Assembly: GCA_963456515.1 (NCBI GenBank)
Contig: CAUOMC010000001.1
Coordinates: 1 to 33,775 of the forward strand
Reading direction: 5' to 3'
Length of the DNA: 33,775 nt
Source of the DNA: an uncultured Candidatus Saccharibacteria bacterium
GTDB taxonomy: Bacteria; Patescibacteriota; Saccharimonadia; Saccharimonadales; Saccharimonadaceae
The position numbers were made by a program, and so were the translations under genes. Shown here in pieces: positions 16,887 to 27,528 of this stretch. The notes under the pieces were generated by a model. That model searched no databases and was not told the DNA's origin. It worked only from the letters and a program-made list of their open reading frames with translations. Position 1 is the stretch's first letter. Each line of letters starts with the position of its first letter.

Positions 16887-16962
16887 TGGTGGAGTAGATC
16901 GGACTCGAACCGACCACCTCAGCAATGCGAATGCTGCGCTCTACCGGATGAGCTACTACCCC
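16887..16962 (-). tRNA. tRNA-Ala(CGC)
   Basis: GGGGTAG acceptor with G3:U70, anticodon loop TT-CGC-AT, GTTCGAGTC, encoded CCA. Confidence 0.95.
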
Positions 16963-16986
16963 AAGCCTCCGTTATCATTATACTAC

Positions 16987-17023
16987 AAAACAAAACCTCG
17001 CCGGAGAAGTCCACGAGGTCTTG
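16987..17023 (-). terminator. Rho-independent terminator downstream of the ncRNA candidate
   Basis: Minus strand CAAGACCTCG-TGGACTTCTCCGG-CGAGGTTTTG followed by TTTT. Confidence 0.7.
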
Positions 17024-17033
17024 CCGCTTTTAC

Positions 17034-17117
17034 TGGCTGTTGTGCGCCCACCCGGGGGCGTTACGCTTTTTTGTTTTCTTGGTTCCAGACGGGTTAGCCC
17101 CGCCTGCACACCAGCCA
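17034..17117 (-). ncRNA. Unassigned structured small RNA candidate
   Basis: Closing stem TGGCTGGTGTGC/GCACAACAGCCA, hairpin AGGCGGG-GCTAA-CCCGTCT, A-rich linker, hairpin GCCC/GGGC; promoter upstream and terminator downstream. Confidence 0.6.
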
Positions 17118-17122
17118 CTTTT

Positions 17123-17150
17123 ATAATACCACAAGCATAATCAAGCACAA
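17123..17150 (-). promoter_or_regulatory. Promoter of the ncRNA candidate
   Basis: TTGTGC-16 nt-TATTAT with an extended TG; the predicted start falls at the base of the closing stem. Confidence 0.6.
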
Positions 17151-17154
17151 GCCC

Positions 17155-19197
<2,043 letters not shown>

Positions 19198-27441: not shown

Positions 27442-27528
27442 TGGTGCGCCCGAGAAGACTTGAACTTCCACGTCGTAACCGACACATGCACCTCAAGCAT
27501 GCCTGTCTACCAATTCCAGCACGAGCGC
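27442..27528 (-). tRNA. tRNA-Leu(GAG)
   Basis: 87 nt, long variable arm, anticodon loop TT-GAG-GT, encoded CCA. Confidence 0.95.

Follow-up and report, generated by a model that had tools for sequence, protein, structure and literature searches.

Comparative analysis of the intergenic region between ligA and a tRNA-Ala gene in an uncultured Candidatus Saccharibacteria bacterium indicated that the element lying there is an uncatalogued non-coding RNA family of the order Saccharimonadales, matching no Rfam family. It is a conserved single-copy feature of most Saccharimonadales, which are tiny bacteria living on other bacteria; the genomes of Saccharibacteria are among the smallest of host-attached bacteria. 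On covariation evidence, the conserved core of the element is a rod composed of a closing stem (P1), an invariant GGUGGGC bulge, a second helix (P2, formed by GGGGC and GCCCC in the window) and an A-rich loop. The element is very probably a transcribed RNA gene, and its product is likely an RNA of ~130 nt. The window is the whole stretch of DNA analysed (33,775 nucleotides, contig CAUOMC010000001.1 of assembly GCA_963456515.1), and the source genome measures 727 kb and is 95% complete.

The original prediction, made from the letters of the window, had proposed a stand-alone, lineage-specific structured RNA, and this is borne out by the element's own flanking signals, by covariation and by the lack of any convincing match beyond the order. 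No description of such an RNA was found in the open-access literature searched. For TM7x, a 2022 transcriptome preprint speaks of 'no currently validated small RNAs' (10.1101/2022.03.25.485537).

The locus and its conserved fold

Every sequence feature named in the original prediction stood at its position on the minus strand. The parts of the locus are as follows.

17155..19194, minus strand: ligA, NAD-dependent DNA ligase (Pfam), the upstream neighbour, outside the RNA
17145..17150, minus strand: -35-like hexamer TTGTGC, read from the sequence; a TTGACA-like hexamer is present in most homologs
17123..17131, minus strand: extended -10 element TG-G-TATTAT, read from the sequence
17106..17117, minus strand: 5' strand of the closing stem P1, from covariation
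17087..17105, minus strand: lineage-variable 5' hairpin, from the minimum-energy fold; its loop and inner stem overlap the 5' strand of P2
17097..17101, minus strand: P2 5' strand GGGGC, from covariation and the homolog parse
17066..17080, minus strand: A-rich single-stranded loop with AAAYAAA, one strict copy in the window
17055..17059, minus strand: P2 3' strand GCCCC, from covariation and the homolog parse
17046..17053, minus strand: invariant bulge GGGUGGGC at the P2-P1 junction, from homolog conservation
17059-17046, minus strand: GCCC/GGGC hairpin of the original prediction, read from the sequence
17034..17045, minus strand: 3' strand of the closing stem P1, from covariation
16985..17026, minus strand: intrinsic-terminator-like hairpin (about 17026-16991) with U-rich tail, z = -3.75
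16887..16962, minus strand: tRNA-Ala(CGC), the downstream neighbour

A transcription start near 17116 is predicted from the position of the -10 element. The unit had been described as free of open reading frames, and none of at least 80 aa was found over it. Folding with ViennaRNA made the core more stable than its shuffles (z = -2.18; 5 of 200 shuffles as good) and the core with its terminator more clearly so (z = -3.66; 0 of 200), and the plus-strand fold of the same region was weaker (z = -1.38). A simple signal scanner run on the window reported no promoter and no minus-strand terminator, its two terminator-like sites both lying on the plus strand. These misses and the z-scores indicate that the promoter, terminator and fold signals are only moderate in the source genome by itself. 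However, the promoter and terminator signals stood far above chance once homologs were compared. A -35/-10 pattern was located directly upstream of 113 of the 152 distinct homologs that had flanking sequence, whereas the antisense side showed one in 4 of 152, and the -10 element ended 6-8 nt ahead of the model start in 92 of these 113. A terminator-like hairpin was present downstream in 108 of the 152, the mean of shuffles being 1.95. It was also observed that the terminator tail of the window (16987-16995) is a perfect 9-nt complement of part of the A-rich loop (17069-17077).

The multi-branch, three-way fold put forward in the original prediction held in part: its closing stem is conserved and the multi-branch form is the minimum-energy prediction in the source genus, but the conserved structure is the rod instead. 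In an alignment of 75 homologs fitted to the covariance model, the rod formed by P1, bulge and P2 was paired in 95.1% of cells, with two-sided changes in 14 of 14 pairs and a covariation score of 0.468, compared with at most 0.089 for slid controls. P1 considered separately presented two-sided changes in all 8 core pairs and 95.7% of cells paired, and RNAalifold, unaided, yielded the same rod on this model-fitted alignment. The metagenome set, whose rows include 11 that are antisense or weak, showed 97.7% pairing and two-sided changes in five of six P2 pairs. The pairing of GGGGC with GCCCC had been mentioned as an alternative fold; it is real, although by no means secondary, being the covarying helix itself. 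An anchored parse of 157 distinct cores, obtained after 4 rows were dropped, found P2 with at least 5 bp in 156 of them and with 38 different 5' 5-mers.

Conservation of letters was confined to other parts of the element. All 74 genome-derived cores have GGUGGG and 73 of them also the C after it, a count in which the first five letters had served as the anchor. Two copies of AAAYAAA were found in 97 of the 157 homologs, one copy in 58 and none in 2, with variable spacing. The 5' hairpin behaved differently: its arm sequences differ between genera of the source family with complementarity kept, it is strongest in that family, and several other lineages display a plain rod without it. Since it overlaps the 5' strand of P2, this hairpin would either take part in a pseudoknot or compete with P2 as an alternative fold. 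The GCCC/GGGC hairpin of the original prediction can form with at least 4 bp in 143 of the 157 homologs by using the invariant bulge letters; it has no covariation, because its 3' side is invariant, and its mean ensemble probability is 0.14, against 0.67 for P2.

Distribution and gene neighbourhood

A degenerate pattern found the element as a single copy in 78 of 82 genomes of the source genus, the reversed control giving 0. For the order, a covariance model on the rod fold (R2) was built from 37 order-level homologs, and 29 candidates were scored per genome. R2 matched 101 of 151 Saccharimonadales genomes at E <=0.01, nearly always in one copy, a figure that takes in 3 weak matches not viewed singly and one unpublished genome (G114); in the other 50 the element was not found by R2 among the candidates scored. 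A model on the originally predicted fold (R1) performed poorly for distant homologs, reaching 56 of 151 genomes at E <=1. All 27 other members of the source family in the class-level draw carry the element, 24 of them at E <0.002 and 3 with weaker matches that were confirmed by eye.

Beyond the order, the best match among 143 genomes of other Patescibacteria had an E-value of 4.6e-4 and none was convincing; none of the 13 top matches viewed combined the full closing stem, P2, bulge, promoter and terminator. In 101 sister-order genomes there was one full-length match (G396, E 2.7e-6), with P1 and bulge and no clear promoter or terminator, the remaining matches being A-rich leaders of a different locus. 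Four sister-order loci (L224, L225, L226, L230) share a conserved leader that contains CTCCACCTCAC, AAAAYAAAAA repeats and an AT-rich palindrome; the ORF behind this leader in L225 and L226 is one that we take to be rsmH-like from its N-terminal motif. Thirty ligA loci, 25 from sister orders and 5 from model-negative genomes of the order, had no match within flanks of ~1.5 kb. Longer stretches of those 5 model-negative genomes provided one weak candidate, and a loose bulge pattern produced 6 matches in 5 model-negative genomes, none convincing. The weak candidate is a putative short divergent copy in G146 (L335:1446-1510, minus strand, E 0.019), which keeps P1, P2 and the GGUGGG bulge and has a U-rich loop. 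Viral contigs returned 58 pattern matches, none of them full.

Metagenomes were scanned with a pattern that fixed the 3' side and the A motif only, and since the 5' strands were left free, the scan is an independent check of the model. It gave 120 loci, of which 100 were tested; 92 matched R2 on the sense strand, two of these being cut by contig ends. For the locus of one family member no RNA dataset was listed, and one small-share run, probably DNA, contained two short relative contigs over the element, which speaks neither for nor against expression. In a 73% complete genome (L018, G010:C24), ~40 nt comprising the 3' part of the element and the start of the terminator are absent, through deletion or misassembly.

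Regarding the neighbours, 32 of 75 genome loci have the end of ligA no more than 400 nt upstream of the element. A tRNA-Ala gene is found at up to 400 nt in 37 loci, sharing the strand of the element in 28 of them and lying on the other strand in 9. The original prediction had held that the element is not simply the leader of tRNA-Ala, which has a TATAAT of its own at 16982-16977, and both points stand: besides the opposite orientation in 9 of the 37 nearby loci, the genes downstream vary. Across the 75 loci, the downstream protein genes differ in identity and strand. With no constant downstream gene or strand, the element is not cis-regulatory, and a test of the riboswitch or T-box leader reading found no constant same-strand downstream gene with an overlapping expression platform.

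These observations bear on the reading of the element as a compact tertiary RNA, with a pseudoknot and A-minor triplexes, that would bind a small molecule or catalyse its own reaction. Aptamers typically combine unpaired letters that do not vary with A-rich linkers. The element has both, and the overlap of the 5' hairpin with the P2 5' strand in the source family corresponds to a pseudoknot topology. However, neither an Rfam riboswitch nor an Rfam ribozyme matches, no downstream gene is constant, the terminator in the window is separate from the core, and the plain rod of several lineages dispenses with the hairpin altogether, which leaves this reading distinctly unlikely.

A tRNA-Ala gene directly after ligA, with no element in between, was seen in 4 of 25 sister-order loci. 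From this linkage, the element appears to have been inserted into an older, pre-existing gene order. A gene for a membrane protein of ~245 aa is often placed directly upstream of the element and, in several loci, between it and ligA (L124, L120, L134, L137, L150, L152, L202, L204 and others). In 10 loci from two families (L176, L212-L216, L218, L220, L221 and L136), the other strand carries an RRM-type gene no more than ~700 nt upstream.

Relation to catalogued RNA families

At the gathering threshold, Rfam recognised only tRNAs on the window; a tRNA-Leu(GAG) at 27442-27528 of the window is called by ARAGORN and not by Rfam at that threshold. Over the element region, with E-values up to 10, sub-threshold chance matches were the only ones returned (tfoR, PK-repBA, DnaX), and 20 homolog loci gave tRNAs and sub-threshold matches, weak Thr-leader matches lying over the element in 3 of them. 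No significant family match therefore emerged from the catalogue, and the element proved conserved and covarying in its relatives.

The original prediction had further allowed for a highly reduced 6S-like or SRP-like RNA, and neither identity was supported. The Rfam 6S model (RF00013), which matches 21 of 151 Patescibacteria genomes, had no match in the source genome. A profile derived from 18 Patescibacteria 6S loci pointed weakly (E 0.13) to contig C66 of this genome, where an intergenic 6S-like RNA gene missed by RF00013 was located (G000:C66:3462-3594, minus strand; L242:863-995; L470). A closing stem and a terminal stem make up its fold (z -3.63), together with a bubble that holds a 3' hairpin, and the core of this RNA family, GGGA...CACCCACCU, is conserved. 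From fold and homology, the C66 RNA would function as 6S. A model that includes it (R3) recovered 6 of 7 held-out Patescibacteria 6S loci and the source-genus homolog, and matched 118 of the 151 order genomes. As a by-product, these searches revealed a 6S-like RNA family of Saccharimonadales overlooked by the Rfam model. The element and the 6S-like RNA occur together in 79 of 151 order genomes, and this co-occurrence with a separate gene indicates that the element is not the 6S orthologue of the lineage. Both are similar in that 6S RNA (RF00013), too, has a closing stem and comes from a stand-alone gene, present once and driven by a sigma-70-type promoter, but the element has neither the central bubble between two long helices nor the terminal stem.

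The element could still be a second RNA-polymerase-binding RNA, acting like 6S or Ms1 without being 6S, and the strong consensus promoter, the single copy and the rod with an internal loop would suit such a role. Against it, a separate 6S-like gene exists, no terminal stem extends beyond the loop, and R3 found no match over the element core in 14 loci even with filters off, its weak matches near the element (E of at least 0.7) falling on neighbouring terminator or flank hairpins. We regard this role as very unlikely. An antisense relation to 6S was also considered and rejected: the bulge complements a conserved CCCACC of the 6S-like RNA, yet co-folding of the two brought no gain.

With respect to SRP, neither an SRP RNA nor an SRP54 GTPase above the cut-off was found in the source genome (95% complete), and the Ffh M domain was found in 0 of 5 further genomes. 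These five, four of them single-contig and the source genome standing outside the set, also yielded no Ro60 (TROVE), no CsrA and no Hfq (each 0 of 5). That the element is a remnant of the SRP RNA might be imagined from the absence of any other SRP RNA gene in the genome. It is exceedingly improbable, given that no Ffh or FtsY above the cut-off and no SRP match in Rfam were found, that the helix-8 motif is missing, as the original prediction had noted, and that the element was not found in the other Patescibacteria sampled.

The element is likewise independent of the 6S-like, tmRNA and RNase P genes, the last two being encoded elsewhere. A full-length tmRNA match lies on contig C34 and a full RNase P RNA copy on C76, and the element has neither the tRNA-like ends and tag frame of the former nor the catalytic core of the latter. 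The tmRNA (G000:C34:1848-2265; L097) scores 43 bits against a gathering threshold of 47, is missed by ARAGORN and appears to have a long tag frame. The RNase P RNA (G000:C76:2082-2470; L100:1501-1889) was observed to be without P15 and the L15 GGU.

In a further reading, the bulge would pair with tRNA 3' ends, GGU with RCC and extendable to GGUGG with CCACC. The element would then act in trans as a holder or sensor of tRNAs, or stand in for the missing CCA-gripping module of RNase P. The L15 GGU is stated to bind tRNA CCA ends and to be missing in Chlamydiaceae (PMC9945441). The RNase P RNA of the source genome is without the P15 and L15 GGU of the Rfam consensus, and CCA is encoded in all 41 tRNA genes found, 12 of which end in CCACCA. 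In about half of the genome loci (37 of 75), tRNA-Ala is within 400 nt of the element. Moreover, the 3' part of the element, in its majority form and judged by eye, resembles the printed Rfam RNase P consensus CCGGGUaggccGCuuGAG in 14 of 17 letters with one gap. However, this resemblance was found post hoc, and the homologous letters are paired differently in the element. By eye, 48 of 48 RNase P segments recognised across the class have no canonical L15, 30 of them from the order and 18 from sister-order genomes in which no element was found; the loss of L15 thus appears not to track the element and to be older than its detectable form. Furthermore, ligA and tRNA-Ala are linked in the absence of the element in 4 of the 25 loci from sister orders, and co-folding of whole RNAs gained only 0 to -4.9 kcal/mol over 7 tRNAs and 0 for tmRNA, RNase P and 6S. 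A role at tRNA 3' ends is thus unlikely in general, and its stricter form, a detached tRNA-gripping module whose GGUGGG bulge would pair with CCA ends in trans, replacing P15/L15 or serving as a tRNA sensor, is decidedly improbable.

Two known systems present similar letters. The P15/L15/P16 region of type A RNase P RNA (RF00010) has a GGU internal loop between two helices and similar 3'-side letters, but the element has no catalytic core and no AAAUA strand opposite the GGU, and the bases that follow are paired differently. The T-box antiterminator (RF00230) has a GGGUGG bulge between two helices that is complementary to tRNA ends. In contrast, the element carries its bulge on the 3' strand, where the bulge letters are not followed by ACC, and it has no specifier stem, no terminator overlap, no regulated gene and no Rfam match. 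Pairing of the bulge with the anti-Shine-Dalgarno sequence was rejected as well, the 16S 3' end GAUUACCUCCU giving it three Watson-Crick pairs only. This 3' end was read in two genomes of the order (L457, L458).

Protein binding as a candidate function

The explanation that we prefer, and hold tentatively, is that the element RNA may act as a protein-binding decoy or scaffold. In bacterial RNAs, variable stems combined with fixed loop and bulge letters are the usual mark of protein-binding sites. Such sites are presumed here because the stems of the element vary and its loop and bulge letters are fixed. The stems would form a rigid frame that resists nucleases and tolerates sequence change, and this frame would present two handles of fixed sequence: the GGUGGGC bulge and the single-stranded AAAYAAA motif, in one copy or two. 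A repeated single-stranded motif on a covarying frame, a feature of decoy-type RNAs, was indeed found, and the tandem, variably spaced arrangement of AAAYAAA suggests that a protein binds twice. The tandem A-rich motifs might mimic the A-rich translation-start regions of the mRNAs of the genome, in which case the RNA would titrate or organise a protein that reads these regions, with an S1-type or RRM protein as candidate partner.

The start regions of the source genome were consistent with this proposal in part. At up to 30 nt from predicted start codons, AAAYAAA reaches 0.6/kb (20 in 32.5 kb), ~5-fold its genome-wide density of 0.13/kb, and AAAGAAA is absent from -30..0 of the predicted starts. 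Within -30..0, however, the number of AAAYAAA motifs does not exceed what base composition gives, with 10 observed against 6.4 in shuffled sequences and 56 of 500 shuffles as high. RRM genes are present in 143 of 151 order genomes, but none was found in the source genome G000, in G189 or in G219, all carriers of the element, and an RRM protein cannot therefore be the sole reason for keeping the RNA. The candidate copy of G146, which keeps the bulge with a U-rich loop, implies that the A motif may be dispensable. Alternatively, AAAYAAA could be a minor-groove tertiary strand, as in pseudoknot structures.

Among known decoys, CsrB/RsmZ (binding CsrA) and CrcZ (Hfq/Crc) are similar in having short motifs repeated single-stranded on a structured frame with their own promoter and terminator. 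The element differs from them in its motif, in its one or two copies and in its extra invariant bulge, and the cognate CsrA and Hfq belong to the proteins found in none of the five genomes searched. Bacterial Y RNAs (Ro60/Rsr) are also alike, since a stem formed by their 5' and 3' ends encloses a large loop; the element, in contrast, has no C-bulged Ro-binding helix, and the TROVE protein was another of those found in none of the five.

A base-pairing regulatory sRNA was considered as well, in which the A-rich loop or the G-rich bulge would serve as seed and an RRM protein possibly as chaperone. Its template is found in the FopS RNAs of Bacteroides with the RRM protein RbpB (PMC11697453), and FopS and GibS resemble the element as small RNAs of an Hfq-less lineage with an RRM protein. 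They act by base pairing, however, and the element is single copy rather than one of 14 paralogs (PMC11697453), with RRM genes not found in three of its carriers. The RRM gene near the element in 10 loci agrees with such a role, as does the presence of TTT[AG]TT in 32 of 67 terminator tails of the element against 8 of 36 other terminators. On the other hand, pairing through an A-rich seed is weak, no conserved target came to light, some carriers yielded no RRM gene, and the terminator tails often overlap the promoter of the next gene. Base pairing is accordingly hardly likely as the main role.

Returning to the protein-binding reading, the single-copy RNA persists in two thirds or more of the genomes of a large order, alongside the 6S-like RNA, tmRNA and RNase P, which makes it likely that it serves something basic. 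Since Hfq, CsrA, Ro60 and SRP were not found in the genomes tested, its partner should be an unrecognised regulator or a core factor newly used. The covariance-supported structure and the two invariant handles render the element directly testable.
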